From IMG/VR virus record IMGVR_UViG_2609459790_000004: 30,774 nt of DNA, one strand, 5' to 3'. A program made the position numbers and the translations under genes. Positions within the stretch are counted from its first letter, which is position 1. Each line of letters opens with the position of its first letter. Of this stretch, positions 1-30,774 are shown in pieces. Source of the stretch: a virus. Its lineage: Duplodnaviria; Heunggongvirae; Uroviricota; Caudoviricetes. A model generated the notes under the pieces. That model was not told the origin of the DNA and made no database searches. It worked only from the letters and a program-made list of their open reading frames with translations.

Positions 1-981
1 TCACACCGCCAACCCGCCGCCGAGAGGGTTTAACGTTACTGCGTGTTGCAGGTAATCAGGTGCAAGGTGAGCATAAACCATCGTCTGTTGTATGCTGGCG
101 TGCCCCAGAATTTGCTGTAACGCAATAATGTTCCCCCCGTTCATCATGAACCAGCTTGCAAATGTATGCCGAAGCACATGCGTGGCCTGCCCGCGTGGTA
201 AATCGGGCTTAACCTGTCTGAGCCGTTCGCAGAAGTTTTCATAGTCAACTTTGAACAGTGGCCCGGTGTCGCTGGTCTTGATCTCTTTCTCCAGTTCTTC
301 CGATATGGGAACCGTGCGCTTTTTCCCATTTTTGGTCTTAAGGAACGTCACGCGCCCGTGATTAACCTGCTCACCGCGCAGCGTGCTGCCTTCACCCCAG
401 CGTGCGCCAGTGCTGAGGCATAGCAGTGCTACGCGTCGATCGTCGCCGGTCAGAGTGTCCAGTAATTTGCTGATCTCTGATTTGGCGAGATAGGTCATAG
501 ATGGGGGCGCTTCTTTCAGTGGTTCCAGACCCTTACAGGGGTTATCCTTCCTGAACTCTTCCAGCTTTATCAACGTGCTGAACATCCCGGACAAACGGTA
601 AATATCCCGATTGATCGTTGCTGCACTGATACTGTCTTCCAGCCTTTGGCTTCGGTGCTGTGCAATCATTCGCTTGTTCAGTCGGTTAACGGCTGGATCA
701 CCCAACGCCCTGATCGTTTTATTCAGGTGCCGTTTTTCAATCTCGCCATTTTCCTGAGTCTGTCCATACAGCAGCCACCAGGTATCTAACAACTCGCTTA
801 AGGTGCGGCGGTCAACGCTCGCGCCCAGCCATTCTTTTTTGTCGGCGTTGGCTAGTACATAACGCTCAAAAAGAACTGCCTCTTGTTTCTTCTCAAATCG
901 CCTGCGGATACGTTTTCCGTTACGTCCGCGCGGCCATACGTCCACTTCATATTGACCACCTTCGAGCTTCTTAATCGACAT
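1..981 (-). CDS. int: tyrosine integrase (P2 Int-like)
   Basis: 326-aa ORF, ATG at 981 with GGAGGG RBS; N-terminus MSIKKLEGGQYEVDVWPRGRNGKRIRRRF and C-terminal HxxRHT..Y catalytic region typical of P2-family integrases; stop codon is at window position 1-3. Confidence 0.9.
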   Translation of the reverse strand: MSIKKLEGGQYEVDVWPRGRNGKRIRRRFEKKQEAVLFERYVLANADKKEWLGASVDRRTLSELLDTWWLLYGQTQENGEIEKRHLNKTIRALGDPAVNRLNKRMIAQHRSQRLEDSISAATINRDIYRLSGMFSTLIKLEEFRKDNPCKGLEPLKEAPPSMTYLAKSEISKLLDTLTGDDRRVALLCLSTGARWGEGSTLRGEQVNHGRVTFLKTKNGKKRTVPISEELEKEIKTSDTGPLFKVDYENFCERLRQVKPDLPRGQATHVLRHTFASWFMMNGGNIIALQQILGHASIQQTMVYAHLAPDYLQHAVTLNPLGGGLAV

Positions 982-1050
982 AAGAAAGCCCTCCGGCGTT
1001 TATTTCCCCATCCTGATAACAGATAGTGAAAATGTAATGTTTATAAACAG

Positions 1051-1371
1051 TTAACCAGTTTGTTTCTCGGAGCGGTCTGATCCAGTTGACTCTGGCCCAA
1101 TGTGTGCGAGGGCCGGTGCGATTTGACCAGCTTGAGGGGCGGTCTTATCAGTCATAAGCCAGAGCGTGTATTTTGCGAAACGTGAATGCTGAGTGATCTT
1201 AAGCAAGATATCGCTACCAATACTCTCCACTCTTCCTGTCTCGTAATACTTCTGCGTGCCAGCAGGTATTCCAGTTAATTCAAAGAATTGCTGCCTTGTT
1301 AACCCCTCCGCATCCCTGATAGCTCTGATTTTTTCACCCACGCCGCTTGACGGGGTAGGGATCTCTACCAT
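1051..1371 (-). CDS. C: immunity repressor C (P2 C-like)
   Basis: Translation has TRQQ..LTG..YYE.GR and KYTLW..GQIAPALAH motifs shared with P2 C; ATG at 1371 has an AAGGAG RBS 6 nt upstream; track ORF extends to TTG 1410 and a second ATG lies at 1404. Confidence 0.8.
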   Translation of the reverse strand: MVEIPTPSSGVGEKIRAIRDAEGLTRQQFFELTGIPAGTQKYYETGRVESIGSDILLKITQHSRFAKYTLWLMTDKTAPQAGQIAPALAHIGPESTGSDRSEKQTG

Positions 1372-1404
1372 AACATTCTCCTTAAGGGTGGTAATCTCTA
1401 CCAT
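1347..1404 (+). promoter_or_regulatory. candidate early promoter Pe (TTGACG-N18-TAACAT, 1347-1376) overlapped by two 11-bp direct repeats ATCTCTACCAT (1361-1371 and 1394-1404), a candidate C operator
   Basis: Hexamers and repeats read directly from sequence; the face-to-face Pe/Pc layout with direct-repeat operators is known for P2-family immunity regions. Not experimentally anchored. Confidence 0.3.
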
Positions 1405-1471
1405 GAGCAACCGCCAATATAAGCAGTTACAAGCCGAAATAAGCGCCTAGCGCCGATGGGGATTATGACAC

Positions 1472-1753
1472 ATGACAGAGAAAGAGTTAGAGGGGTTCAT
1501 TGAAGTGCGTCACGCCGTTGACGCGGTTCCATACCCTAAATTTGCCGAGTTAATCGGTAAGAAGCCCGCCACGGTTAAGAGCATGATTGAAGACGGTAAG
1601 TTGCCGATCATCCCGTGGAAGAACCCGGACAGCCTGGGCGCCCGTGCTGAGAACTGGATCTATATTCCTGAGTTCAACCGCGCAATGCGTGACGCCTACT
1701 ACAACCGTCCGAGAGAGCAGCGCGACGCTTGGTTGCTGTGGATCGGTCTTTGA
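1472..1753 (+). CDS. cox: Cox-like excisionase / early transcriptional regulator
   Basis: 93-aa ORF divergent from C; FAELIGK..GKLP..W..P and DAWLLWIGL motifs resemble P2 Cox. Confidence 0.8.
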   Translation: MTEKELEGFIEVRHAVDAVPYPKFAELIGKKPATVKSMIEDGKLPIIPWKNPDSLGARAENWIYIPEFNRAMRDAYYNRPREQRDAWLLWIGL

Positions 1754-1763
1754 GGTTATCGCG

Positions 1764-1967
1764 ATGAGCCAGAAAACAGCCAACCACGAAAACCGGGTGC
1801 GTGAATGCAACGACATTCTGGACACCCATTTAAAAGATATGCAAACGGGCTTCATGATTCGCACCAATAGCGGCGAGTTTATGATCAGGGATAAAAAGCT
1901 GATTAAGAAAATAACCAAAGACGTGGCCCGCCATGTTGATGGTGAATTGCTTAAATTGGGAATGTGA
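1764..1967 (+). CDS. hypothetical early protein (67 aa)
   Basis: ATG at 1764 with GAGG RBS 8 nt upstream, immediately after cox stop; in frame with track ORF 1587..1967. Confidence 0.5.
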   Translation: MSQKTANHENRVRECNDILDTHLKDMQTGFMIRTNSGEFMIRDKKLIKKITKDVARHVDGELLKLGM

Positions 1968-1977
1968 GGGGGCTTTT

Positions 1978-2184
1978 GTGGCTGTGCAATTAATACAGTT
2001 AAGTCGTCATTCATATTTATATCGTGGCTTCACTATTCAGAAATGCCCGCGTAATCCTTTTACGTTTAAGCACTCTTATCGTATTTCCAGCAATGGCGAT
2101 TATTATGGGCGTGACTTTGCTTTAGCGGAAGCCATGCGCACGGTTGATCAGATGTATAAGCAAGGGGGCAGTAATGCACGATGA
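1978..2184 (+). CDS. hypothetical early protein (start uncertain: GTG 1978 with GAGGGGG RBS, or ATG 1933)
   Basis: Track ORF 1933..2184; stop overlaps start of next ORF (ATGcacgaTGA). Confidence 0.4.
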   Translation: MAVQLIQLSRHSYLYRGFTIQKCPRNPFTFKHSYRISSNGDYYGRDFALAEAMRTVDQMYKQGGSNAR

Positions 2185-2404
2185 AGGCCCATCACTGGCA
2201 AGCCTGCTTAAGCACGGGTGCCAGGTTACACACTTCAAAAACTCACGCGGCTGGCTGGAAACACCAGACGGAAGATTTTTTAAGCCCGAACCGGCGAAGG
2301 TTCAGTTTATCAAAGGTAAAAATAAACCATTTATTTATACCCAAAGAATAAATAAAGACTTCCTGCTTACACTGGCTGAATTATTTAAAAAGCTAATTAA
2401 GTAA
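2174..2404 (+). CDS. hypothetical early protein (76 aa)
   Basis: ATG 2174 with AGGGGG RBS; in frame with track ORF 2144..2404; AT-rich 3' half. Confidence 0.45.
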   Translation: MHDEGPSLASLLKHGCQVTHFKNSRGWLETPDGRFFKPEPAKVQFIKGKNKPFIYTQRINKDFLLTLAELFKKLIK

Positions 2405-2490
2405 TTCGGTTTTAAAAAATCAACTCTGTTTTCTCCGCCTCTTTATCAAGTGGCGGCGGTTCAACTCATTCTTTTTTTGAGGAAGAGATT

Positions 2491-2703
2491 ATGACCAGAC
2501 GTGATCAATATAGCTTCATTTTGCATGTTCTTTTACCTGCTATCGAAAATGAAGGCTTAACCATTAAAACCCGCCGTGATGGTGAGTTAACCCTTTCTGC
2601 CACTGGATCAGTAACCACAAATTTTATCAGCACCCTGCGCCAGCACTGCATTGAAGAATTGCAGCGCCCTTCTATTCCAGCTTCCCATTACGGAGTCCTG
2701 TAA
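2491..2703 (+). CDS. hypothetical early protein (70 aa)
   Basis: ATG 2491 preceded by GAGGAAG RBS; stop TAA 2701-2703 abuts the Dam start. Confidence 0.55.
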   Translation: MTRRDQYSFILHVLLPAIENEGLTIKTRRDGELTLSATGSVTTNFISTLRQHCIEELQRPSIPASHYGVL

Positions 2704-2704
2704 A

Positions 2705-3676
2705 ATGATCCGCCCGTTCATCAAATGGGCAGGGGGTAAAACCCGTGTCCTCCCTGACCTGCTGCCGCATCTTCCTAAAGCCGACTGCCTGATCGAACCG
2801 TTCGTAGGCGGCGCATCGGTATTTCTGGCGACTGAATACCGCCGCTATGTGCTGGCTGATATCAACCCGGATCTTATTAACCTGTATCGGGAAGTCACCC
2901 GTTACCCGGACTTAGTGATCGATGCGGCCCGCGAACTGTTCAACAGCAAGAATAGCCCGCAGGGGTACAACGAAGTCCGAGCCGCGTTCAATAAGCAGGT
3001 AGGTACGGTAAAAAGCGGTGGGTTGCGTTATGGCGTAGAAATGGCGTGCATCATGCGCGCTGCTCAATTCCTGTATCTGAATCGCCACGGTTATAACGGC
3101 TTATGCCGCTACAGTCGTAAGACCGGCTTTAACGTGCCGTTTGGCAAGTATAAGAGCGTCTACTTTCCTGAAAATGAAATCCGCCTGTTTGCAGAAAAGG
3201 CCAACAATACAAAGGCAATATTTCTTTGCGCGCCGTTCCAGCGTTCTCTACAGGTCGTCACGGGTGGCGATGTTCTCGTTTACTGCGATCCGCCTTACCT
3301 GCCTGAAGGCAAAACAGCCGATTTTACCAAATACCACACCGAACCATTCACGGAAGACAACCACCGCCAGTTAGTCCAGGCACTGCTGGAAGTTAACCGT
3401 AAGCATGGCGTGAAGGTCGTCATTTCCAACAGCGACACCGAAGCCACCCGCGCGATTTATCAGCCCTTCAAGATGCACGAAATCAGCGTGCAACGTTCCA
3501 TCAGCACCGACAAAGACAACCGCCAGAAGGCCAAAGAAGTGATCGGCGTGCTGCCTGTCTGCGACTGCTGCGGGCGTTACGGCGGCGGTTGCCCTGATTG
3601 TGGCGCCGTGATGGGTGATGCGACTTACAACGCGATGGTTGCGGCGGGCACGTCTGACGATCTGGAGGCTTTTTAA
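2705..3676 (+). CDS. dam: orphan DNA adenine (N6) methyltransferase, Dam family, with Cys-rich C-terminal tail
   Basis: FIKWAGGK, EPFVGGASVF, LYLNRHGYNGLCRY and DPPY motifs match the Dam family; preferred start ATG 2705 (RBS ACGGAG) rather than track start 2651, which overlaps the upstream ORF. Confidence 0.9.
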   Translation: MIRPFIKWAGGKTRVLPDLLPHLPKADCLIEPFVGGASVFLATEYRRYVLADINPDLINLYREVTRYPDLVIDAARELFNSKNSPQGYNEVRAAFNKQVGTVKSGGLRYGVEMACIMRAAQFLYLNRHGYNGLCRYSRKTGFNVPFGKYKSVYFPENEIRLFAEKANNTKAIFLCAPFQRSLQVVTGGDVLVYCDPPYLPEGKTADFTKYHTEPFTEDNHRQLVQALLEVNRKHGVKVVISNSDTEATRAIYQPFKMHEISVQRSISTDKDNRQKAKEVIGVLPVCDCCGRYGGGCPDCGAVMGDATYNAMVAAGTSDDLEAF

Positions 3677-3855
3677 TGAATCTTATAGACGCCTGGATCG
3701 TTGAAATCATAAGCGTGAGTCGTGGCGAGATTGCGCCGTATTGGTTGGTTGAGGCGAAAGTAACAGCTTATGGAAGGGAGTCAATAACCACAATTCTGAA
3801 GAAATCAGAAGAGGAAGCCAAAGCCGTTAAAGTAGGGGATGTAGTTCAAATATGA
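3676..3855 (+). CDS. hypothetical 59-aa protein translationally coupled between dam and A
   Basis: Hand translation MNLIDAWIVEIISVSRGEIAPYWLVEAKVTAYGRESITTILKKSEEEAKAVKVGDVVQI; start overlaps Dam stop (TAATG), stop overlaps A start (ATGA); GGAGGC RBS. Below the 60-aa cutoff of the ORF track. Confidence 0.5.
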   Translation: MNLIDAWIVEIISVSRGEIAPYWLVEAKVTAYGRESITTILKKSEEEAKAVKVGDVVQI

Positions 3856-6209
3856 CCACGGAAACCCGTGGCCGTCGCGCCCCTTCTCCACCTCCACCGT
3901 ATCCGGGTAGCACTGACAATGCTATCCCTTACGCTTATGGGGGAAACAGACCATACCAGCCTATTGGCTTTGATGTAGCGCCGGGGCTGGATGGTTTCGA
4001 CTATCTCACGCCGGACGGCACGCGTAAGCATATTGCGTTCAGTGAACTGGTAGCGGAAGACGAAAAGCCGGAGCGCAGCAAGCTGCTGCGTCGCCGTCTG
4101 GCTTCACTTCCGCAGTATATCCGCCGCCACTTTGCCGCGAAGCTGGATGCACTGGAAGCGAAAGACCGCAAAGCGGCAGATCACTGGCTGGTTAATACCT
4201 TTGAGCGCCACGTATTAACGCGAATTGATAGCGTGAACAGTGTTTACCAGCCTGACACTATGATGCCCGGCATTCTGCTGCCAATCCGCGATCAGCTGTT
4301 CCGTATGCTCTGGGCAGGGAAGAAAGAGTTAAAAAGACTGGCTTATACGCTTGCCGATATCTTTACGAGCGAGTTTATACGCGAGTCCGATCACCAATTG
4401 GCACGCACCGGAGATCCTGAGTTCGCGGCGCTTTCTGGCTATGGCCGTATTGCGTCGCTGGCGGTGCATCTGAAAACGCCGATCCCCGGCTGGAGGGCGT
4501 ATTGCAATGAAGAACTGGAAGCGGAGGACGCGTTACGCGCGGTTCTTCGCCTTGAGTCACCGCAGTGGTGGTTAAACCGCCTGCGCCGTATCCATGCCCG
4601 GTGGCGTGAGCATTTGATGATCGCAGCGGGATACGTCCAGAAAAAATCTTCCCCATACAGTAGCGCCCCGTGCCTTACGGAATGGCTGGCCCAGAAAAAG
4701 GCTAACCGTGAATACCTCAAGGCTATGGAACTGGAAGATCAGGATACGGGCGAGCGCATTTCACTGATCGATAAAGTCGCTGGCAGTGTTGCCAATCCGG
4801 CCAACCGTCGCCGCGAACTCATGACGAGAATGCGCGGATTTGAAGATCTGGCGAAGCTGGAAGGGCTGGCCGGTGACTTCTACACGCTGACAGCACCTTC
4901 CCGTTACCACTCCATGCAGCATAACGGGCGCCGCAATAATAAATACTGTGGCGCGTCGCCGCGCGAGACGCAGCAATATCTTTGCAAAGTCTGGGCAAGA
5001 ACCCGCGCAGCGTGGAAGAGAAAAGGGATCCGCGTCTTTGGTTTCCGAGTGGTCGAACCGCACCACGATGCAACGCCACACTGGCATTTACTTCTTTTTA
5101 TGCGCCCCGAATGCGTCGAACAGGCGCGCGAAATCTTCCGTAAATATGCCCTGAAAGAAGACGGCAACGAACCGGGAGCGCAGGAAAACCGCTTTCAGGT
5201 TGTGCCGATCGACGATGCCCACGGCAGCGCAACCGGCTACATAGCGAAATACATTTCGAAGAATATCGACGGCTTCGCGCTGGATGGTGAGAAGGACGAC
5301 GAAACCGGGGAAGACCTGAAAGAAATGTCACTCCGCGTTAGCGCGTGGGCATCGCGCTGGGCTATTCGCCAGTTTCAGCAGATCGGCGGTGCGCCGGTCA
5401 CGGTATATCGGGAACTTCGCCGCCTGGGCGATCGCGAACTGGTGTTACACCCTGAACTGGAAACCGCCCGGCAGGCCGCTAACGGTGGCGAATGGGATAA
5501 CTACGTATTAGCCCAGGGTGGCCCGTTGGTTGAGCGCGATAAGCTGCGCATCCGTCTGAACTATGAAACCACTGAAAACGGTAACGCCTACGGCGATAAC
5601 GTCCAGCGAATCACTGGTATTTACTGCCCGATTACGGGCAATGACTCTTTGATCTTCACCCGCACCACTCAATACAAAATCGTGCCGAAGCGCCAGAGCG
5701 CTGACGGTGTGGCCGTTGACGTTGGTTTTTCAGGCGGCAACGCCGCCCCTCGGAGTTCTGTCAATAACTGTACGCGGGATCCCGCGACAGGTGCAGACGG
5801 TCTTGAACATGCCGATCACGAAGTGGGCGAGACGGTGAATTTTGATGCGCTTTCACGGCAGGAAAAGCGAGAACTGGCGCAGCGGCTTAGTGACGATGTG
5901 CGAAGTAAGCGTAAAAAACAGCCATCGGAACGGGAAGAGAGGGCCGGGCTATCCGTGAAAGAGCAGCAGATCAGTGAACTGCTGGCGCTGCGTGGGATTG
6001 ATGCCAGCGCCGGAATAGTCAGATCGATGATGGCTGGTGCGTCAGTGGCGTGCGGCGATCTTGTTATGACCGTACAAAATGGGCGGCTGGTATCGCGCAA
6101 CCGTGCAGCGTCGGGGCTGGATAAGCTGCCGTCGCAGGTAATGGCTGCGAAGAAAAAGACCAGTGACCTCGTGAACAGGATGAAGGCTGCGTTTTCGGGA
6201 CGGAAGTAG
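3852..6209 (+). CDS. A: rolling-circle replication initiation endonuclease (P2 gpA-like)
   Basis: 785-aa ORF with HWH..L and YIAKYISK motifs typical of P2 A-family initiators; position after the early operon. Confidence 0.9.
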   Translation: MTTETRGRRAPSPPPPYPGSTDNAIPYAYGGNRPYQPIGFDVAPGLDGFDYLTPDGTRKHIAFSELVAEDEKPERSKLLRRRLASLPQYIRRHFAAKLDALEAKDRKAADHWLVNTFERHVLTRIDSVNSVYQPDTMMPGILLPIRDQLFRMLWAGKKELKRLAYTLADIFTSEFIRESDHQLARTGDPEFAALSGYGRIASLAVHLKTPIPGWRAYCNEELEAEDALRAVLRLESPQWWLNRLRRIHARWREHLMIAAGYVQKKSSPYSSAPCLTEWLAQKKANREYLKAMELEDQDTGERISLIDKVAGSVANPANRRRELMTRMRGFEDLAKLEGLAGDFYTLTAPSRYHSMQHNGRRNNKYCGASPRETQQYLCKVWARTRAAWKRKGIRVFGFRVVEPHHDATPHWHLLLFMRPECVEQAREIFRKYALKEDGNEPGAQENRFQVVPIDDAHGSATGYIAKYISKNIDGFALDGEKDDETGEDLKEMSLRVSAWASRWAIRQFQQIGGAPVTVYRELRRLGDRELVLHPELETARQAANGGEWDNYVLAQGGPLVERDKLRIRLNYETTENGNAYGDNVQRITGIYCPITGNDSLIFTRTTQYKIVPKRQSADGVAVDVGFSGGNAAPRSSVNNCTRDPATGADGLEHADHEVGETVNFDALSRQEKRELAQRLSDDVRSKRKKQPSEREERAGLSVKEQQISELLALRGIDASAGIVRSMMAGASVACGDLVMTVQNGRLVSRNRAASGLDKLPSQVMAAKKKTSDLVNRMKAAFSGRK

Positions 6210-6261
6210 GGCGCCGATCGTCTATATTCTGATCGTCGATTAAACCAACGAGGTGATAGAT

Positions 6262-6516
6262 ATGGCAATTGAAGGACAACTCACAATGGAAGCCAGAAAA
6301 GCCCGGCCAGAAGCTAGCGTGCGATTTGAAAGGAACGGGCAGATTTTAACGATGTTCTGGGATTGGGAATATAAGGGCCAAAAGCTGAGTTACAGCAGGG
6401 CGGAACTGCGCCAGGACTATGAAAAAGATCCAGAAATGGTTGGGGCGGTTGTCGATTTTTGTGTGATCCAAATGGGTATTTTGGAAAAAGGAATTGACGA
6501 CGCCGCGCCGCGTTGA
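6262..6516 (+). CDS. hypothetical small protein (84 aa) between A and cos
   Basis: ATG 6262 with AGGTGA RBS; soluble, no recognisable motif; occupies the position of the P2 orf91/tin/old accessory locus. Confidence 0.5.
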   Translation: MAIEGQLTMEARKARPEASVRFERNGQILTMFWDWEYKGQKLSYSRAELRQDYEKDPEMVGAVVDFCVIQMGILEKGIDDAAPR

Positions 6517-6644
6517 AAATCAGTGCAAAATTTCGCGCAAAACCGCACAAATTTTATGATGGTGATTTTTCAGGAGCAGACCAGACGGGGCGGGCCTTCA
6601 GCTGGTCTGCACATTTGCACAAAAACGCGGGGTTTCTGCGTGCG

Positions 6645-6663
6645 GGCGAGGCGGGGGAATGAG
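6645..6663. other. candidate cos (cohesive end) site
   Basis: GGCGAGGCGGGGGAATGAG resembles the P2 cos cohesive-end sequence recalled from memory (GGCGAGGCGGGGAAAGCAC); lies in a GC-rich non-coding stretch between A-side genes and Q, as in P2. Confidence 0.5.
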
Positions 6664-6774
6664 CGCGCGCTGAGGGGTGGGATAGGGTCGGTATTATCTG
6701 CGCCGATTTTCGCGCCGTTGCGCCTCGCTGCTGCGTCGTTTTCGGTTCGCCGTGGTGGTTTGAGGCAAAAGAAA

Positions 6775-6792
6775 AGCCCATGCCAGCGGGCT
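6775..6792 (-). terminator. candidate intrinsic terminator for the leftward P-Q operon
   Basis: 5-bp stem AGCCC/GGGCT with 8-nt loop; on the minus strand it is followed by a U-rich run (CUUUUCUUUUG); ~80 nt downstream of Q stop. Confidence 0.35.
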
Positions 6793-6873
6793 GCTGAGGG
6801 GCTTATGTGCGGTGTGGTCAGTTGCGGCCGTGCTGGCCGCTCCACGGTGGTGGTGGGTGTGTCTGGGCTGGCG

Positions 6874-7923
6874 TCAGATCGCTGCCTGCAATAGTGCGTA
6901 AGGGTTGAAGCGCACCACGTCGATCCCCAGCCAGTCGTTTAACTCTTTCAGGCTTTCTTGTATCGGGGCCAGTTCGTTGATGGAAAACACCTTCGCCGCT
7001 TTCTCTACGTCGCCGAAGCCACCGGAGTTATTAGGCATTACCCCCATCAGAACGGGCGGCACACGGTGCGCGGCTAGCAGGTCGTCGCGGGTGGCGTCTT
7101 TGATGCCGGTAAACTCATCCTTCGCCGCCACCTGGCTGAACGGCATAATTTGCAGGCCGTCTTTTTTCCCGCCCGCCGCGTAGACAAACAGGTTTTTAAA
7201 AGCACCGTTGCCGCGTGCATCTTTCAGCGACTTCTTAAGCTTTTCCACATCGTTATTATTCGCTACCGGGTCAGTGAGGTAGACGATCACCCCCGCATGA
7301 CTGCCGTTAATGTAGTAGTTGCGGCGAAATACCGTTGCTTCACCGTTCAGCATGGCGCTTTGTAGCGCGGCCAGATATTCCGGCGCGCCGTAGATCTCCT
7401 GGTGCGGGCTGGGGTTCTTGATCTGGCAGACGCTGCCTGGTTCGAACGCGTGATCGTCAACGTAGCGCGGAACAAACCAGAATTGCGCCGGGTCTATGCC
7501 GCGCCGCGTATATTTTGCCTGGCTGTGCCGCAGCTCGATCGGCTGGCCGAGTCGGTTGCGGCGGCATTCCATGTAACAGTTACCGAAAATTAAATAATCC
7601 TGCACCCAGGCGGTGAACTCCTGCCGGGTCAATAGCGGGTGTGGTATGTAGCAACTGGCGATAACATTGCGTTTAAATATCAGCGGTGACTGGTGATAGG
7701 CGGCAACGTCGAACATGCGTGCAAGCCCGTAGGGGCTGATCGGTGGTTCATACCAGCGGCCATTGTTATGGCATTCGAGGCACTCCATAAGAGACGCGCG
7801 ATCGTTGACTGCGATCGGGTCGCCAAAGCTGAAAGATTCCACGCTTTCCAGCGGGGTGGCTGCGTTGCTGGCCGTGCTGGCTGGCGCAGCAGTTGGCGCC
7901 CTGAATTTCTTTTTGCCGCTCAA
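6874..7923 (-). CDS. Q: portal protein (P2 gpQ-like)
   Basis: 349-aa ORF adjacent to terminase; length and position match P2 Q; apparent TTG start immediately after P stop with GGAGGA RBS inside P. Confidence 0.85.
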   Translation of the reverse strand: MSGKKKFRAPTAAPASTASNAATPLESVESFSFGDPIAVNDRASLMECLECHNNGRWYEPPISPYGLARMFDVAAYHQSPLIFKRNVIASCYIPHPLLTRQEFTAWVQDYLIFGNCYMECRRNRLGQPIELRHSQAKYTRRGIDPAQFWFVPRYVDDHAFEPGSVCQIKNPSPHQEIYGAPEYLAALQSAMLNGEATVFRRNYYINGSHAGVIVYLTDPVANNNDVEKLKKSLKDARGNGAFKNLFVYAAGGKKDGLQIMPFSQVAAKDEFTGIKDATRDDLLAAHRVPPVLMGVMPNNSGGFGDVEKAAKVFSINELAPIQESLKELNDWLGIDVVRFNPYALLQAAI

Positions 7924-9636
7924 TTAAAACTCCTCCACAAAACTGCCGTTATCGCCGGTCACTTCCGCGCCGATCGGTTCGTTGTAAATGCCCTGCATAG
8001 TTGCCCATGCCAGATCGCCGTGATTGCTGCCACGGGCGCGATCGGACTGGTAGGTAATAACGCCGCCAGCGGTGACTTTACGCACGGTCATAAACGACTG
8101 TGCGAGATCCATCATTCCGGCGTCGAACTCAAAGCGCCCGGCGCGAATGACCATCAACATTTTGAGCACCATCGACCGCTTAAGAACCGGTGAATAGTTG
8201 TATTTAACCGCCTGCGGGAAGAACTTGATCACCAGTTGATAAACCGCATCGCCGATCCCCGTGCCGTCGATAGCAATGTGCTGCACGTTGTAGCGGGTGG
8301 TGATCTCTTTAATAAAATTGGCCTGCTCTTCGTACTCCATGCCGCGTAACTGGTGGCGCTCTACCGCGCGGAACTTACCACCCGGCACGGCTGGCGGGGC
8401 CAGCACAACCAGCCCGGCGCTGTCGCCTTTGCCGCTGCTGCCGTTGGGGTCATAGCTAACCCAGACAGGGCGATTACCCAGCGGGCGGGGTGCAAACGGG
8501 TTCCAGTCCGGCCAAGCGTCCGGCATGTAGCCATCAACGCCGCAGCCCAGAATTGCGTTGTAGTCGAAGGCGCGTTCCCCGGCTTTAACGAACATGCAGC
8601 CGTACAGGTTGGCGTATTCGTCGGGGGAGTTTTCGTTACGGATTTCATCGGTATCAACCAGATCGAAGCCGAGCTTCACGGCGTCTTCCAGCGTGACTAT
8701 CTGGCGCCAGATGTTATCCCCGCATAGCTTGCCGTTTTTCAGTGCCTTATAACTGGTGTCGATATCCACCCGATCGGAGCGGCGGCGGTTTTTATTGAAC
8801 TGATCGCCAGTCCAGAAAGGATAGGCTTCATGTTCTTCACTGGAAGGCGTCGAAAAGTAGGTGCGGCGCAGTCCTTTTTGTGTCGCCATGCCTGCGGCCA
8901 CTGAGCGCAGTTTGATGAAATTACTGATCCAGAAGGCTTCATCAAGGTACAGATCGCCGGTGTAGCTCTGGGCCGTCGCGGAGGAGGTGCCGAGAAAATA
9001 CAGGATCGCACCGTTGCTTAACTCAATGGCATCACCGCCCTTAAGTTCTACTCCTATTTCCCTTGCCAGCTTCTGAATGAACCTCTTGAACTGGAACGCC
9101 TGGGCGCGGCTGGCTGACAGGAATATCTGATTATTTCCGGTTTCCAGCGCACGCAACAGCGCTTCGCGGGCAAAGTACCAGGTGGCACCAATCTGGCGCG
9201 ATTTGAGTATAAAGCGGTTACGCCGGTTCCACTGTTTGAACCAGCGTTTTTGATGCTCGTATAGCGAATCAAAGACCAGGGCGCGAAGCTGGGTTATCTG
9301 TTCTTCGGTGAAATGGTTTTTCGGGGTCTTCGCCTTCTTCTCTTTCTCCTGGTCGCGTCGCTCATGCCGTTCAAAGCGGTCAAGCTGGCGCGCCAGCAGG
9401 TCAATTTCTTTGAAGTCCTTCGGGGTTTTGTCGTCCTTTTCCACCAGGCGCAGGTAACGAACGTGTGTGCGATCCTGCACCCGCTGCATGGGGGTGGCTT
9501 TATCCCATTCGTAGCGGCGGCGCCAACTGTAGATCGTGTTAATGCTCACCCCGATTTCCTTAGAAATCTGAGTGATGCTAAACGCCTGCCAGTAGAGGCT
9601 TTTGGCTTTTGTGCTGAGGTCTTCGGCTGTATTCAT
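7924..9636 (-). CDS. P: terminase large subunit (P2 gpP-like)
   Basis: 570-aa ORF; N-terminal helix-turn-helix region, Walker A-like ILKSRQIGAT and C-terminal nuclease region; ATG at 9636. Confidence 0.95.
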   Translation of the reverse strand: MNTAEDLSTKAKSLYWQAFSITQISKEIGVSINTIYSWRRRYEWDKATPMQRVQDRTHVRYLRLVEKDDKTPKDFKEIDLLARQLDRFERHERRDQEKEKKAKTPKNHFTEEQITQLRALVFDSLYEHQKRWFKQWNRRNRFILKSRQIGATWYFAREALLRALETGNNQIFLSASRAQAFQFKRFIQKLAREIGVELKGGDAIELSNGAILYFLGTSSATAQSYTGDLYLDEAFWISNFIKLRSVAAGMATQKGLRRTYFSTPSSEEHEAYPFWTGDQFNKNRRRSDRVDIDTSYKALKNGKLCGDNIWRQIVTLEDAVKLGFDLVDTDEIRNENSPDEYANLYGCMFVKAGERAFDYNAILGCGVDGYMPDAWPDWNPFAPRPLGNRPVWVSYDPNGSSGKGDSAGLVVLAPPAVPGGKFRAVERHQLRGMEYEEQANFIKEITTRYNVQHIAIDGTGIGDAVYQLVIKFFPQAVKYNYSPVLKRSMVLKMLMVIRAGRFEFDAGMMDLAQSFMTVRKVTAGGVITYQSDRARGSNHGDLAWATMQGIYNEPIGAEVTGDNGSFVEEF

Positions 9637-9682
9637 GGCAACAGGCTATCGCGCTCGCGCGCGCAACAATATCGCCGCTTGT

Positions 9683-9700
9683 TGTCGCCTGAGTCCGACA
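9683..9700. promoter_or_regulatory. Ogr/Delta-type late-promoter dyad TGT-N12-ACA (candidate PO activator site)
   Basis: TGTcgcctgagtccgACA in the P/O divergent intergenic region, ~100 bp upstream of O start. Confidence 0.5.
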
Positions 9701-9789
9701 AAGTGAAGGCTTTGCGCCTTCCTGCTGCAAAGGGAATGATTGGGGCACTGGTTAATATCAATCGCTTACCAACCCGGAGCTTTGTCACC

Positions 9790-10635
9790 ATGCCAATGAC
9801 AAATTTTTTCCGCGTCGCAGTCGAAGGCGCAACCTGTGATGGCCGCGTGCTGGAACGTCAGCACATTATCGAAATGGCCGAGCAGTACGATCCCCAGGTC
9901 TATGGCGCCCGCGTCAATCTGGAACACATTTTAGGCTGGTCTCCAAACAGTGATTTTCGTGCTTACGGCGACGTTGCTGAAACGAAATATGAAGAAATCG
10001 CCGAAGGCCAGTTAAAGGGCAAGTTGGCGCTTTTGGTGAAGGTGGACGCCACGGATGAACTGGTCGAACTGAAGAAGAAACGCCAGAAAATCTACCATAG
10101 CATTGAGGTGCATCCGTCCTTTGCTGACACCGGCAAAGCCTACCTTATGGGGCTGGCCTGTACCGATAACCCGGCGAGCCTGGGCACCGAAATGATGAAG
10201 TTTTGCACCCAGAACGCCAGCGCCAACCCACTGGCCGCGCGTCACTATGCACCTGAATGCTTCTTCACTGAAACCCTGGAATCGTCACTTGAATTCGCGC
10301 AGGAAGAGCCGCCAGCGTCCGACACCGGGAAGAATTTCTTTTCCCGTATCAAGGAAATGCTGACCGGAACCCGCCAGCACTTCGATCGTGAAAATGGTGA
10401 TATTCGCCAGGCGGTTGAACTGGTAGCGGAAAGCCAGGGTGAATTGCTGGACAAGATGGAAAAACTGAGCGCAGGGCAGCTTAAGAACAAACAGACCGCC
10501 GAAGCGGTGGATAAGTTGCGCTCTGAGTTCGACGAGATGAAAGCGCAGCTTTCTACCCAGGACGCCAGCAAATACCGCCGCCCGGAAGCGACCGGCGCAA
10601 CTGAAAAATCTAACGCCCAGCTTGCTGACTGCTGA
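9790..10635 (+). CDS. O: capsid scaffolding protein (P2 gpO-like)
   Basis: Start ATG 9790 (MPMTNFFRVAVEGATCDGRV... resembles P2 O N-terminus); the track ORF from 9313 is an upstream extension overlapping P antisense. Confidence 0.85.
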   Translation: MPMTNFFRVAVEGATCDGRVLERQHIIEMAEQYDPQVYGARVNLEHILGWSPNSDFRAYGDVAETKYEEIAEGQLKGKLALLVKVDATDELVELKKKRQKIYHSIEVHPSFADTGKAYLMGLACTDNPASLGTEMMKFCTQNASANPLAARHYAPECFFTETLESSLEFAQEEPPASDTGKNFFSRIKEMLTGTRQHFDRENGDIRQAVELVAESQGELLDKMEKLSAGQLKNKQTAEAVDKLRSEFDEMKAQLSTQDASKYRRPEATGATEKSNAQLADC

Positions 10636-10675
10636 TCGCCGTCAGTAACGAAGGAACAGTACAGGAAAAATAACT

Positions 10676-11722
10676 ATGCGTAATTCTACCCGTGAATTGT
10701 TTGATGCGTATCTTGAGCGACAGGCCGAACTCAATCACATCAACAAATCCCACGTAACAAAGGCGTTCAGCATTGATCCGAGCGTTGAGCAGACGCTTGA
10801 AGACAAGGTGCAGCAGTCTTCCGAAATGTTGAAGAAGATTAATATCTACGGCGTTAACGATCAGTCCGGTGAAAAAATCGGTCTGGGTGTGAGCGGGCCG
10901 ATCTCCAGCACCAACAATTCCACCACCGATCGCCGCCAGCCTGTTTCCGTCACGGCGCTGGATTCGAACAAATACACCTGTAATAAGGTGAACGCGGATA
11001 CTTTCGCCTCTTATGCGCAGCTTGATGCCTGGGCTAAATTCCCGGATTTCCAACAGCGACTGAGCAATCAGATCATCCAGCGTATCGCGCTTGATCGCAT
11101 CATGATCGGCTTTAACGGAACCAGCTACGCGGATAAGTCCGACCGCAACGCCAACCCGCTTTTGCAGGATTGTGGTATCGGCTGGCTGCAACAGTACCGC
11201 GCAAACGCGCCGCAACGTGTCATGAAAGATATCACCGTGACCAGCCGCGACGATTCCAACCAGGTGATCGCTAAAGGTGATTACGGTAACTACGACTCGC
11301 TGGTTTATGACGCGGTTAACTCACTGATGGACGAGTGGTACAAAGATTCGCCCAATCTGGTGGTGATCACCGGTCGTAACCTGACGGTTAGCCGTTCGTT
11401 CCCGATCATCAATGCCGTAAGCACCAATAACCCGAACTCCGAAGCGCTGGCCGGTCAGTTGATCGCATCGCGTAAGACGATCGGCAACCTGCCTTCGTTT
11501 ATCGCGCCTTTCTTCCCTGACGGCAGCATGTTTATCACTTCGTGGGAAAACCTGTCGATTTACTGGCAGGAAGGTGCGCACCGCCGCCGCATTGTGGAAG
11601 AGCCGGAATATAACCGTGTCTCTACCTACAGTTCGTCAAATGATGCCTATGTTGTTGAAGATTACGGCTTCGGCTGTCTGATCGAAGGCATTACCGCCGC
11701 CGAACCAGCACCAGCACCATAA
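10676..11722 (+). CDS. N: major capsid protein (P2 gpN-like)
   Basis: 348-aa ORF following the scaffold gene; size and position match P2 N. Confidence 0.9.
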   Translation: MRNSTRELFDAYLERQAELNHINKSHVTKAFSIDPSVEQTLEDKVQQSSEMLKKINIYGVNDQSGEKIGLGVSGPISSTNNSTTDRRQPVSVTALDSNKYTCNKVNADTFASYAQLDAWAKFPDFQQRLSNQIIQRIALDRIMIGFNGTSYADKSDRNANPLLQDCGIGWLQQYRANAPQRVMKDITVTSRDDSNQVIAKGDYGNYDSLVYDAVNSLMDEWYKDSPNLVVITGRNLTVSRSFPIINAVSTNNPNSEALAGQLIASRKTIGNLPSFIAPFFPDGSMFITSWENLSIYWQEGAHRRRIVEEPEYNRVSTYSSSNDAYVVEDYGFGCLIEGITAAEPAPAP

Positions 11723-27500: not shown

Positions 27501-28619
27501 ATGGACACGACAGAAAACCGATATTCGCCGCGCCCGGCGTTCAGTATTGAGATTGAAGGTAAGCAGCTTACGGCGCTGGATAACCGGCTGATCTCCCTTT
27601 CCCTGACAGATAACCGGGGCTTTGAAGCGGACACGCTGGATCTGACTCTGGATGATGCAGACGGGCAGGTAGCCTTACCATCACGCGGCGCAAAGATATC
27701 GGTGGCGCTGGGCTGGGATAATGATCCATTGGTTTTTAAGGGCGTGTATACGGTTGACGAGATCGGACACTCTGGCCCGCCTGACCAGCTAACGATCAGT
27801 GCCAGAAGCGCAGATTTCCGCGATACCTTTAACGTGAAGAGGGAATATAGCTGGCACGATATTACCGTGGGGGATGTGGTTGCCAGCATTGCCAGCCGTT
27901 ACGATCTGCGTGCGGGCGTCAGCGAAGAACTGGCGAAGATTGAGATAGATCACGCCGATCAGACGAGTGAATCAGATATCAGCTTCTTAACGCGCATGGC
28001 CGAAATGCTGGGCGCGGTGGCAACCATTAAAAACGGTATGCTTCTGTTTATCACGCCGGGCAAGGGAGTAACGCAGAGCGGCAAGCCGCTGCCGGTGATC
28101 GAGATAGTCCGGTCAAGCGGTGATAAACATCGGTTTAACGTAGCTGACCGCGACGCGTACACGGGCGTAACTGCATACTGGCTTGATCTCAACTTTGGCA
28201 AGAAACCATCCACTACCGTGAAGAAAACCACCCGCAGGCGACGAACCAGCCAGGCCAAAAAGAAAGAACCCGCATCAAGCAAAAAAGAAGGGGATTATCT
28301 GGCCGGGGCCGAAGGCAACGTTTTTGTTATCCGTAAAACCTTCAAGACGGAAAAGGCGGCGAAGCGGGCCGCTGCGGCTAAGTGGCGGGAGTTGCAGCGT
28401 GGAGCGGCGACGTTCAGCATCACCCTGGCGCGTGGCCGCGCGGATTTGTACCCGGAACAGCCCGCCAGCGTCTACGGCTTTAAGTCCACGATCGACAGTG
28501 GGAACTGGACGATAACGCGGTGCGTTCACGATATTGGCGGGGGAGGGTTTACCACATCGCTGGAACTGGAAGTAAAAATCGACGACTGGACAGCGGAGAG
28601 TGACGATTCAACGTCTTAA
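27501..28619 (+). CDS. D: tail protein D (P2 gpD-like)
   Basis: 372-aa ORF; ATG 27501 with GAAGGGG RBS; size and position as P2 D. Confidence 0.9.
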   Translation: MDTTENRYSPRPAFSIEIEGKQLTALDNRLISLSLTDNRGFEADTLDLTLDDADGQVALPSRGAKISVALGWDNDPLVFKGVYTVDEIGHSGPPDQLTISARSADFRDTFNVKREYSWHDITVGDVVASIASRYDLRAGVSEELAKIEIDHADQTSESDISFLTRMAEMLGAVATIKNGMLLFITPGKGVTQSGKPLPVIEIVRSSGDKHRFNVADRDAYTGVTAYWLDLNFGKKPSTTVKKTTRRRRTSQAKKKEPASSKKEGDYLAGAEGNVFVIRKTFKTEKAAKRAAAAKWRELQRGAATFSITLARGRADLYPEQPASVYGFKSTIDSGNWTITRCVHDIGGGGFTTSLELEVKIDDWTAESDDSTS

Positions 28620-28667: not shown

Positions 28668-28910
28668 ATGGCAATGCGCTGTCCTCGCTGCCGTGCAATA
28701 GCAAAAACCAGAACCAGCGTTGAGCTGAGTTTGCTTGTACGGCGCAGCTATCACCAGTGTCAAAATATGTTGTGCGGGTACTGTTTCACCAGCATGACGG
28801 AAATAGACGGTTCACTAAATCAGACCCAGCCAGCGCCCGGCGCGATGGTGCCACAAGAAGCTTTTCCACGAAGTCACCACGGCGAAGATCAGTTATCGCT
28901 GGCATTATAA
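28668..28910 (+). CDS. ogr: Ogr/Delta-family zinc-finger late transcription activator
   Basis: 80-aa ORF with CPRC...YHQCQNMLCGYCF Cys4 motif matching Ogr; AAGGAGG RBS. Confidence 0.85.
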   Translation: MAMRCPRCRAIAKTRTSVELSLLVRRSYHQCQNMLCGYCFTSMTEIDGSLNQTQPAPGAMVPQEAFPRSHHGEDQLSLAL

Positions 28911-28936: not shown

Positions 28937-29584
28937 TTATTTCATGTTTATGGCTACAAACCTTGATCGTGTAAGGTTTTCACTTAAATATTGATCGCCA
29001 CTATCCCCGGCCTTTTTGCCCCAGATATCACACGAAGATTCACCGCCCTGAAAAACGTAGCCTTTGGTTAAAATGTCGTTAGTCACATAAATATGATCGA
29101 ATAAACCAGCCTTCCAAGCCCTGTTAGATTCCCCGTGATTGAAATAGCTGATGCATACGGACTGAACGGCACTTTTCGCCTGTAGTTCTTCTATGCTGTC
29201 AAAATTGAATGCAACTACTAAGGCTTTGTTGTAAATGACTGGTTTAACTGTGAGATTCAGATCTCCGAGCGCCTTGGATAAGGCAAGGGGAAGTTGATTA
29301 GTCGCTTCTGAAAAGTCGATAGTGGTTGTTAATTGTTCTTTGGGTTTAGCCGCGGGTTGTGTTTGTTCTGTGTTTGTCACTGCTGGCTGGGGTTTATTTT
29401 CAGCAACAGCTTTCGGCGCGACTGGTGCAACCATTGAACCTATGATTGCTGCCAAGAGGCACACCCCGAAGTAGATAGCAGATGAGCGCTTTCGATTTGG
29501 CATAAAAACCCATTTGGGATTGATTAGCCCAACCCAAAAAGCGATCCCAGCAACAGCGGCGATAACGGTGATGATTGTTTCCAT
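28937..29584 (-). CDS. hypothetical membrane protein (two N-terminal TM helices, Pro/Gln-rich linker, ~150-aa C-terminal domain with two Cys); prophage-end cargo
   Basis: 215-aa ORF, ATG 29584 with GGAGGG RBS; AT-rich relative to surrounding phage genes; no recognisable family. Confidence 0.6.
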   Translation of the reverse strand: METIITVIAAVAGIAFWVGLINPKWVFMPNRKRSSAIYFGVCLLAAIIGSMVAPVAPKAVAENKPQPAVTNTEQTQPAAKPKEQLTTTIDFSEATNQLPLALSKALGDLNLTVKPVIYNKALVVAFNFDSIEELQAKSAVQSVCISYFNHGESNRAWKAGLFDHIYVTNDILTKGYVFQGGESSCDIWGKKAGDSGDQYLSENLTRSRFVAINMK

Positions 29585-29762
29585 TGAGTACCCTCCGTAT
29601 TAAGGCGGGTATTATTGTCGATGGTGCTCAAAAACGGAACAGCCAAGCGCGGTGCGCCTGGCTGCTTCTTTGTCGAAGTGTAGTCAAAATGTAGACGAAG
29701 TTTAGAATAAATCCTTTTATTCCATTATGTTACTGGCTGGATTTCTTCACCATCCCTGTCTT

Positions 29763-29790
29763 CCCCCCCCTGCTGTGGGGGGTTTTTTTT
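29763..29790 (+). terminator. intrinsic terminator upstream of fieF (C8-loop-G6 stem followed by T8)
   Basis: CCCCCCCC TGCTGT GGGGGG TTTTTTTT read directly from sequence; position matches where a cpxP/CpxQ-type terminator would lie if the host flank is cpxP-fieF. Confidence 0.6.
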
Positions 29791-29871
29791 ATCCTCAATT
29801 TGCCTGCTGCTTAATGCATTGCAGATGATTTGCTTCCGTTATACTAGCGTCAGTTGATAGCGGGAGTATTT

Positions 29872-30774
29872 ATGAATCAATCTTATGGACGGCTGGTCAG
29901 TCGGGCGGCGATTGCTGCGACGGCGATGGCTTCGCTGCTATTGCTGATTAAAATTTTTGCATGGTGGTATACCGGGTCGGTGAGTATTCTCGCCGCGCTG
30001 GTGGATTCGCTGGTGGATATCGGCGCGTCGTTGACGAATTTATTGGTGGTGCGATATTCCCTGCAACCTGCCGACGATAATCACTCGTTTGGTCACGGTA
30101 AAGCTGAGTCCCTCGCGGCGCTGGCGCAAAGTATGTTTATCTCCGGTTCGGCACTATTCCTGTTTTTGACGGGTATTCAACATCTGATATCTCCAACACC
30201 GATGACAGATCCAGGCGTCGGGGTTATCGTGACAATTGTGGCGCTAATTTGTACGATTATCCTTGTCTCGTTTCAGCGTTGGGTGGTGCGGCGGACGCAA
30301 AGCCAGGCGGTGCGGGCTGATATGCTACATTACCAGTCTGATGTTATGATGAACGGCGCAATTCTGCTGGCGCTGGGGTTGTCCTGGTACGGCTGGCATC
30401 GCGCCGATGCTCTGTTTGCATTGGGAATCGGCATCTATATTTTATATAGCGCGTTACGCATGGGATATGAGGCGGTACAGTCATTACTGGATCGCGCATT
30501 GCCTGATGAGGAACGGCAAGAAATTATTGATATCGTGACTTCCTGGCCGGGTGTTAGCGGCGCTCACGATCTTCGCACGCGGCAGTCAGGGCCGACCCGC
30601 TTTATTCAGATTCATTTGGAAATGGAAGACTCTCTGCCTTTGGTTCAGGCACATATGGTGGCGGATCAGGTAGAGCAGGCTATTTTACGGCGTTTTCCGG
30701 GATCGGATGTAATTATCCATCAGGACCCCTGTTCCGTCGTACCCAGGGAGGGTAAACGGTCTATGCTTTCATAA
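29872..30774 (+). CDS. fieF: cation diffusion facilitator family ferrous-iron/zinc efflux transporter FieF (YiiP)
   Basis: Translation from ATG 29872 ([49 protein letters not shown]...) matches enterobacterial FieF as I recall it; track ORF begins at an upstream TTG 29854. Confidence 0.95.

Follow-up and report, generated by a model that had tools for sequence, protein, structure and literature searches.

A P2-like prophage at the cpxP-fieF attachment site and the correspondence of its att core with the small RNA CpxQ

P2-type attachment sites and the prophage in the window

The integration sites of P2, WΦ and others have been compiled (PMC3448106), and the cpxP-fieF interval is listed as the site of the P2-type Wphi1 in E. 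coli W, beside rybB, cyaR and ssrA as P2-type sites (PMC3032704). The same interval is a prophage site in an O157:H7 outbreak strain (PMC7609406) and the site of ΦESI in Salmonella Infantis (bioRxiv 10.64898/2026.03.17.712176). Both the attachment site and the P2-like phage group that uses it are already known. Several phages are known to integrate at the 3' ends of RNA genes, among them 186 in tRNA-Ile, Fels-2 and SopEΦ in ssrA, and P2-like elements at cyaR and rybB. Like the element described here, phages at tRNA, tmRNA and sRNA 3' ends have a long core that equals the 3' part of the RNA gene including its terminator, and the gene is likewise rebuilt at the int-proximal junction, with a truncated copy at the other end. 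This logic of 3'-end integration has been described for tRNA genes and ssrA (PMC3448106).

Here we analysed a window of 30,774 nucleotides (IMG/VR record IMGVR_UViG_2609459790_000004), bounded by the stop codons of a leftward int gene (1-981) and of fieF (30774). WΦ (Peduovirus Wphi) uses the same chromosomal site as the element in the window, with the same core and the same order D-ogr-attP-int-C. The identity between WΦ attP and K-12 attB is 2 nt longer (GA), 47 nt in total, and the published core of WΦ is reportedly '47-nt' (said to be from Karlsson et al. in 2006). The WΦ integrase is homologous over its full length to that of the window but only 67.5% identical, and the WΦ arms are ~75-80% identical to those of the window. 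The arm repeats read TGTAGAC in the window and TGTGGAC in WΦ, although they stand at the same places and are 11-bp phased in both. The window integrase belongs to a sublineage distinct from WΦ and common to Enterobacter phage phiT5282H (Novemvirus) and Salmonella phages SEN4/SEN5 (Senquatrovirus), which were isolated from other genera and whose integrases are 98-99% identical to it. These phages have a P arm of 90-93.5% identity, the same core and a matching P' arm; on this sequence evidence, the attP sites of phiT5282H and SEN4/5 are the true counterparts of the window attR.

The features of the window are as follows.

1-981, minus strand: tyrosine integrase of 326 aa, the leftmost prophage gene (Pfam Int_N and Phage_integrase, PF24624 and PF00589; phrog_1)
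1472-1753, plus strand: Cox-family protein (PF10743 Phage_Cox on the identical gene, 3121-3402, of the left-flank contig L018 described below)
27501-28619: gpD
28668-28910: Ogr/Delta zinc-finger gene (ogr)
28937-29584, minus strand: cargo ORF of 215 aa, two hydrophobic segments near the N terminus (ORF call; start codon 29584-29582)
29585-29670, no strand assigned: upstream region of the cargo ORF, part of the variable cargo module and outside the conserved att site
29671-29747, no strand assigned: P arm of attP, kept at attR (90-93.5% identity to attP of SEN4/5 and phiT5282H, ~75-80% to WΦ-type phages)
29679-29697, plus strand: arm-type repeats TGTAGTCA and TGTAGACG, 11 bp apart, putative integrase sites
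29748-29793, plus strand: att core, 46 bp here and 45 bp in relatives, a direct repeat of attL and attR that is also in attB and attP
29763-29790, plus strand: CpxQ Rho-independent terminator (terminator scan), with the hairpin at 29763-29782 and T8 at 29783-29790
29794-29871, plus strand: host-only upstream region of fieF (promoter and RBS), identical to K-12
29872-30774, plus strand: fieF, a CDF cation-efflux transporter gene, intact and 100% identical to K-12 fieF

The P2-like gene set is complete from int to ogr, and the genes between int and fieF include the Cox-family gene, the replication gene gpA, and portal, terminase, capsid and tail genes. When the integrase is aligned with WΦ Int, its catalytic residues (R194, H268, R271, H294 and Y303) show no change. 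In the lysogen EC09 the annotation of the Cox gene reads Cox family DNA-binding protein, and the product of this gene is presumed to be both the excision directionality factor and a regulator of the switch. The element is almost certainly a P2-like (Peduoviridae) prophage, apparently complete, whose tyrosine integrase uses the WΦ-type cpxP-fieF site.

The right end of the prophage carries variable cargo. The position 29584, at which the original prediction had the cargo gene end, is in fact the first base of the start codon of a minus-strand ORF; a Pfam search of its 215-aa product found no match, and PHROGs gave matches of unknown function only. Other genes occupy the same slot beside attP in related phages: phiT5282H has a cpdA-like phosphodiesterase there and SEN5 a different hypothetical ORF, whereas WΦ lacks any cargo between ogr and attP. 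Because homology to attP begins only at ~29671 (phiT5282H) or ~29656 (SEN5), the sequence at 29585-29670 belongs to this variable module. An imperfect 23-nt inverted repeat at 29628-29676, which is terminator-like on both strands, also lies mostly within it.

The attR junction and the two ends of the prophage

In a megablast search with 29585-29871, host homology starts at 29748 in 5426 of 5426 complete E. coli genomes, and the part from 29585 to 29747 is matched in only 15 of the 5426. These results indicate that the phage/host boundary is 29747/29748. Alignment with an unlysogenised cpxP-fieF region, the check that had been proposed for this junction, gave a match to K-12 (L001) from position 1501 up to host fieF. 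The attB of K-12 lies in the intergenic region 1476-1623, with the cpxP stop at 1475, the core at 1501-1545 and the start of fieF at 1624; after the cpxP stop the sequence reads taaaccctg TTTTCCTTGCCATAGA CACCATCCCTGTCTTCCCCCACATGCTGTGGGGGTTTTTTTT, and the core begins 25 nt after the stop codon. The start of fieF had been predicted at 29872, and an ATG stands at 29872-29874 and opens a reading frame that runs to 30774. The original prediction had also confined attR to roughly 29585-29750. The boundary does fall in this interval, at its very edge, but the duplicated core (29748-29793) extends beyond it. Similarly, integration had been placed into or right after cpxP, and the core does lie 25 nt past the cpxP stop, but it is inside CpxQ (from nt 17) and not in the cpxP coding sequence. 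We put the probability that 29585-29871 contains the attR of a P2-like prophage at the cpxP-fieF site at about 0.95.

Because the window lacks attL, we sought the left end among contigs that encode exactly its 785-aa gpA. Contig JNRG01000015.1 (locus L018 of assembly GCA_000704565.1) matches window 1-11709 with 100.000% identity and is almost certainly the source of the window; it was used as the left flank, the link being the 100% identity over 11.7 kb and not a stated provenance. L018 has cpxA-cpxR-cpxP directly left of the integrase. Leftward from int stand the P' arm (107 bp), CACCATCCCTGTCTTCCCCCACATGATGTGGGGGTTTTTTTTATC, TTTTCCTTGCCATAGA, 9 nt and the cpxP stop, with cpxR and cpxA beyond. 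The complete genomes EC09 and ECONIH5, which have the closest integrases, show the same arrangement on the cpxP side. The left flank is thus cpxP in all three, as had been anticipated, and the shared core that the prediction called for is present at both prophage ends: EC09 has a perfect 45-bp repeat of attL and attR (45/45 identical), flanked by cpxP at the left end and by fieF at the right end, and L018 attL differs from the window attR at 4 positions. Truncation of cpxP by the prophage was also considered and is ruled out by the full-length coding sequence (166 aa) in L018, EC09 and ECONIH5.

The window attR was aligned with attR and attL of EC09, attB of K-12 and attP of phiT5282H, SEN5 and WΦ. 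The P arm is common to attP and attR, the P' arm is common to attP and attL, and one block is common to all. The left host flank of attB is that of attL, and its right flank is that of attR. In the free phages phiT5282H, SEN4/SEN5 and WΦ, attP consists of a P arm, the same core and a P' arm next to int; for the window phage it comprises a P arm of ~80 bp (29671-29747), the 45-bp core and a 107-bp P' arm adjoining int. The P arm bears the two phased repeats in TGTAGTCAAAATGTAGAC at 29679-29696, where the TGTAGNC pattern occurs once in the window (0.01 expected by chance), and a third, degenerate repeat at 29701-29708. Their partner in the P' arm, TGTAGACAAGATGTAGAC at L018 1625-1642, also matches at this one place against a chance expectation of 0.01, and the arm repeats are those grouped as family D1 in the repeat analysis. 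They resemble the published P2-type arm consensus tgTGGaCa (PMC3448106). Int, IHF and Cox would presumably bind at the attachment site.

Recombination between attP and attB mediated by Int would duplicate the core, which is the 3' segment of CpxQ. The resulting attL would carry cpxP, the complete CpxQ and its terminator, followed by the P' arm and int, and attR would carry the P arm and a seedless CpxQ copy with its terminator, followed by the unchanged promoter and gene of fieF. Both the gene and the sRNA would be kept at attL, as they are with phages that insert in tRNA 3' ends. For annotation, the right end of the window may be taken as a textbook attR at a published hot spot, with cpxP, CpxQ and fieF treated as intact.

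The att core and CpxQ

CpxQ is an Hfq-dependent sRNA of ~60 nt that RNase E cuts from the cpxP 3' UTR and that makes up nearly the whole of this UTR (PMC9438474; PMC4817254). A C11G mutant showed that the RNA pairs through a seed at its 5' end with nhaB and cfa (PMC6755755). When the window is compared with the described CpxQ (Chao & Vogel 2016; Grabowicz et al. 2016, PMC4817254), 29748-29790 corresponds to nt 17-58, but the seed (nt 1-16) is absent and the segment does not lie 3' of cpxP. The core CACCATCCCTGTCTTCCCCCACATGATGTGGGGGTTTTTTTTATC equals CpxQ nt 17-58 plus ATC, so that both the single-stranded CCCUGUCUUCC stretch and the Rho-independent terminator lie inside it. This numbering depends on the 5' end of CpxQ, which reportedly reads UUUUCC... 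(Chao & Vogel 2016); such an end puts a C at position 11 and so agrees, only indirectly, with the C11G mutant. The terminator has a C-run/G-run hairpin with a 6-bp G-C stem, folding at ~-17 kcal/mol within an RNA of CpxQ length. The original prediction of a strong intrinsic terminator at 29763-29790 was borne out by the terminator scan; it had been treated as purely host, and it coincides with the duplicated core 29748-29793.

The copy at attR (29748-29790) consists of the internal C/U-rich stretch, the hairpin and U8, and it has no CpxQ nt 1-16, the 5' seed UUUUCCUUGCCAUAGA that includes C11. Upstream of 29748 lies the phage P arm and not cpxP, whereas the attL copy does lie in the cpxP 3' UTR. 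Unlike the tRNA and sRNA targets of other phages, CpxQ is derived from a 3' UTR and has no promoter of its own, so the attR copy is left without the cpxP promoter and without the context for RNase E processing. By sequence, the attR copy is a remnant and not a CpxQ gene. Rfam holds no family named CpxQ, and a scan of the window against it gave nothing significant at attR. The sole Rfam model over the locus, RF02628 (Hrs1), lies on the opposite strand and scores 41.4 bits for K-12, 44.5 for attL and 19.5 for attR, all below the gathering score of 56.4.

In literature searches combining CpxQ with attB or prophage integration, and cpxP with P2-like, we found no statement that the cpxP-fieF att core is CpxQ. 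The site was listed as intergenic in 2011 because CpxQ had not yet been described, and this 'intergenic' site of WΦ is the 3' two-thirds of CpxQ. Given the identity of the core with CpxQ, the P2-type sites rybB, cyaR and cpxP-fieF of E. coli W (PMC3032704) all lie in small-RNA genes. The equivalence is a small addition to what is known of the site and not a new kind of system.

It is doubtful that the 42 nt of CpxQ in the attP of this P2-like phage group are more than an address label. They might be expressed and functional, either as a chimeric, seed-swapped sRNA at attR or attP, composed of the P arm, CCCUGUCUUCC and an Hfq-type terminator, or as an anti-CpxQ RNA arising at attL by read-through from C-int. 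The antisense form is favored in that, in L018, no terminator-like site was found on the minus strand from the int stop to the core. The kept CCCTGTCTTCC is an internal near-repeat (D3) of CCCTGTTTTCC, a stretch overlapping the 5' end of CpxQ, and in cells infected with lambda CpxQ features prominently among the phage-host RNA chimeras (bioRxiv 10.1101/2024.10.31.621285). For the chimeric form, a weak sigma-70-like match, TAGTCA-16-TAGAAT (9/12) at 29681-29708, would yield an RNA of ~75 nt up to the CpxQ terminator. We rejected this match as the promoter of an attR sRNA, as it is marginal (6 such matches in the region against 3.0 expected) and overlaps the arm sites, and its -35 element is not conserved in WΦ. 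Moreover, the conservation of the core is fully explained by the need to match attB, and the attR copy attains its low score of 19.5 bits on the Rfam locus model. We therefore consider a function of the phage-borne core improbable; were the attP/attR core or an anti-CpxQ RNA expressed, lysogeny would be coupled to the Cpx envelope-stress circuit.

Even less probable is a disruption or alteration of CpxQ by the prophage, with a changed Cpx envelope-stress output in the lysogen. Such an effect is suggested by the integration itself, which lies physically within the CpxQ sequence from nt 17, and by the loop base A, in place of the K-12 C, at attL, where the 3' part of the sRNA and its terminator may be derived from the phage. 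However, a full-length CpxQ is encoded at attL of L018, EC09, ECONIH5 and LY180, and its 58 nt are identical to those of K-12 except for this one loop base. The hairpin with A in the loop is the commonest version, found in 29 of 119 Enterobacterales copies among the matches listed. The predicted fold and energy at attL are the same as in K-12 (-17.4 kcal/mol), and attL scores as well as K-12 on the Hrs1 model (44.5 against 41.4 bits). Because cpxP and CpxQ are rebuilt intact at attL, an effect on CpxQ is not expected, and we infer that the expression of CpxQ and of fieF would be unaffected by the prophage.

Hairpin variants and occupancy of the site

The window hairpin reads CCCCCCCCTGCTGTGGGGGG and differs from K-12 by A>C at both 29768 and 29770 and by an additional G at 29777; the other 1024 host positions of the window are identical to K-12. 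Without these three private changes the hairpin is CCCCCACATGCTGTGGGGG, and L018 attL has the ordinary CCCCCACATGATGTGGGGG, so that the cores of window attR and L018 attL differ at 29768, 29770, 29773 and by the G at 29777. An exact search for the variant hairpin CCCTGTCTTCCCCCCCCTGCTGTGGGGGGTTTT gave zero matches in IMG/VR, the GTDB species representatives and the JGI metagenomes, and the variant is also absent from the 5426 E. coli genomes and from the 34 hairpin versions catalogued among the matches listed. It folds like the wild type (-17.2 vs -17.4 kcal/mol), and the assembly shows no indel noise against its relatives, with 0 gaps over 11.7 kb against L019. Three origins are conceivable for the private changes: a true mutation in a remnant that is not under selection, an earlier allele of the host, or an error of the local consensus at a GC hairpin. 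The four hairpin differences between attL and attR might, though this is improbable, impair excision in this lysogen and lock its prophage in.

That the junction is instead the edge of a decayed or recombined island abutting the CpxQ terminator, for which one could cite the imperfect window core with its three private changes and the existence of remnants with the same flanking repeats (e.g., Rosenbergiella L034), is hardly credible in view of the full P2-like gene set from int to ogr, the intact catalytic residues of the integrase, the matching attP in free phage genomes and a boundary whose nucleotide position is shared by lysogens from several genera.

The hairpin also bears on where site-specific integration exchanges strands. 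The loop base is A at L018 attL (phage type) and C at the window attR (K-12 type), which suggests, for this one lysogen, that strand exchange took place left of the hairpin loop at 29773. The Int overlap region may fall within the core stretch CACCATCCCTGTCTTCCCCC. EC09 and LY180 have A in the loop at both ends and are uninformative on the position of the crossover, and in the small remnants L034 and L120 the hairpin is of the host type at either end.

With a K-12 probe, the empty site is uninterrupted in 4591 of the 5426 complete E. coli genomes. In genomes with a split site, the K-12 match stops, among the matches listed, at the last base of the core or at most 3 nt from it. The remaining 835 genomes (15.4%) are read as occupied at this point, 790 of them with a WΦ-type P' arm and int and 45 with a window-type int, which sum to 835. 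Deletion or probing of CpxQ in natural isolates should take into account that ~15% of E. coli would carry a second, truncated CpxQ copy at attR, and that the 3' half of CpxQ in those strains may be derived from a phage.

The site is also conserved well beyond E. coli. At least 120 species-representative genomes contain the first 19 nt of the core, and the genera with the core among the matches listed are Escherichia, Salmonella, Citrobacter, Klebsiella, Enterobacter, Serratia, Pantoea, Erwinia, Rahnella, Edwardsiella and others. An invariant TTTTCCTTGCCATAGA stands upstream of the core in 110 of 119 usable Enterobacterales copies among the matches listed; this segment was outside the search pattern, and the 110 copies are attB or attL. 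In at least 110 species-representative copies, which come from many genera of the Enterobacterales, CpxQ nt 1-36 do not vary. Among the matches listed, the 119 copies show 34 versions of the hairpin, whose stem is kept by paired changes. Over 11.7 kb, phages with 99.2-99.65% identity to the window are found at the same nucleotide in hosts with different cpxP and right flanks, and the invariance of CpxQ nt 1-36 can account for such near-identical phages (99.65% over 11.7 kb) at one nucleotide in different genera. Several representative genomes have tandem or attP-like junctions at the site, and some have decayed remnants, such as that of Rosenbergiella L034, which is 2.6 kb long, has no int and is flanked by the same repeats.

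The cargo slot beside attR

Two features lie at the right end of the prophage next to attR:

window 28937-29584, minus strand: cargo ORF of 215 aa, between ogr and attR
window 29628-29676: inverted repeat of 23 nt, imperfect (74% complementary), situated between the P arm of attP, kept at attR, and the start of the cargo ORF

The cargo ORF is preceded by a strong RBS and encodes two hydrophobic segments at its N-terminus. It has no Pfam match, and the only PHROGs matching it, phrog_3403 and phrog_3807, are both families of unknown function. In the Enterobacter phage phiT5282H the same slot is taken by a cpdA-like phosphodiesterase, and the ORF in the slot of the Salmonella phage SEN5 also differs from that in the window. 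Because the slot contents differ among these three, the cargo slot adjoining attP is a variable moron locus. The inverted repeat is terminator-like on both strands and may act as an insulator between the cargo gene and the att region. The ogr/Delta-like gene (window 28668-28910) is an intact ORF of 80 aa in the window, whereas its counterpart in the closely related prophage of the E. coli lysogen EC09 (L002 2084-2164) is annotated as a truncated pseudogene.

Sequence variation and repeats at the two att ends

Three changes are private to the attR hairpin (window 29763-29782): A>C at 29768, A>C at 29770 and an additional G at 29777. Its predicted stability is the same. These changes are found neither in the copy at attL on the same contig (L018 1513-1531) nor in any of the collections searched, namely 5426 E. 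coli genomes, IMG/VR, the GTDB species representatives, the JGI metagenomes and the 34 hairpin versions catalogued. Either they reflect a genuine mutation or the assembly is wrong at this spot.

At attL, the U-tract of CpxQ together with the beginning of the P' arm, the int-proximal side of attP, makes up an inverted repeat (L018 1528-1562) whose halves, GGGGTTTTTTTTA and TAGAAAAAATCCC, are 85% complementary. The motif CTTAGAAAAAATCC in P' arms of the window type is kept across the lysogens examined. This arrangement may mark a protein site close to the core, or may simply be due to chance.

Other occupants of the CpxQ site

The order P arm, core and P' arm is seen at junctions in L026 (5566), L029 and L080 (Salmonella enterica s1) and L045 (94). 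At the L045 junction the two arms are both window-type, while the junctions of L026 and L080 combine a P arm of the window type with an unlike, WΦ-like P' arm. In Kosakonia, Salmonella and Citrobacter, these attP-like junctions suggest that the CpxQ site holds P2-like elements in tandem, or else an excised or circular form.

In Rosenbergiella gaditana (L034 2663-5330), attL-like and attR-like core copies lie only 2.6 kb apart, and in L120 (5822-7120) they are separated by just 1.25 kb. The L034 interval lacks an integrase and contains just a fragment of a tail-fibre-assembly gene and two small ORFs beside attR; it looks like a decayed prophage retaining both att ends and its attR-proximal cargo. 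Enterobacterial CpxQ sequence (the cpxP 3' end) also occurs on CACSKA010000012.1, labelled Chryseobacterium sp. 18061, which is probably a contaminant or mislabelled contig.

Rfam Hrs1 and the CpxQ strand

The Rfam family RF02628, Hrs1, an Hfq-regulated sRNA of Erwinia, matches the strand opposite CpxQ over the full CpxQ length:

L001 (K-12 locus with empty attB) 1470-1542, minus strand: RF02628 match
L018 (attL contig) 1467-1539, minus strand: RF02628 match

The scores of 41-44.5 bits are below the gathering score of 56.4. Since the RF02628 model consensus reads as the CpxQ reverse complement, the Hrs1 family probably models the CpxQ locus, but on the wrong strand.
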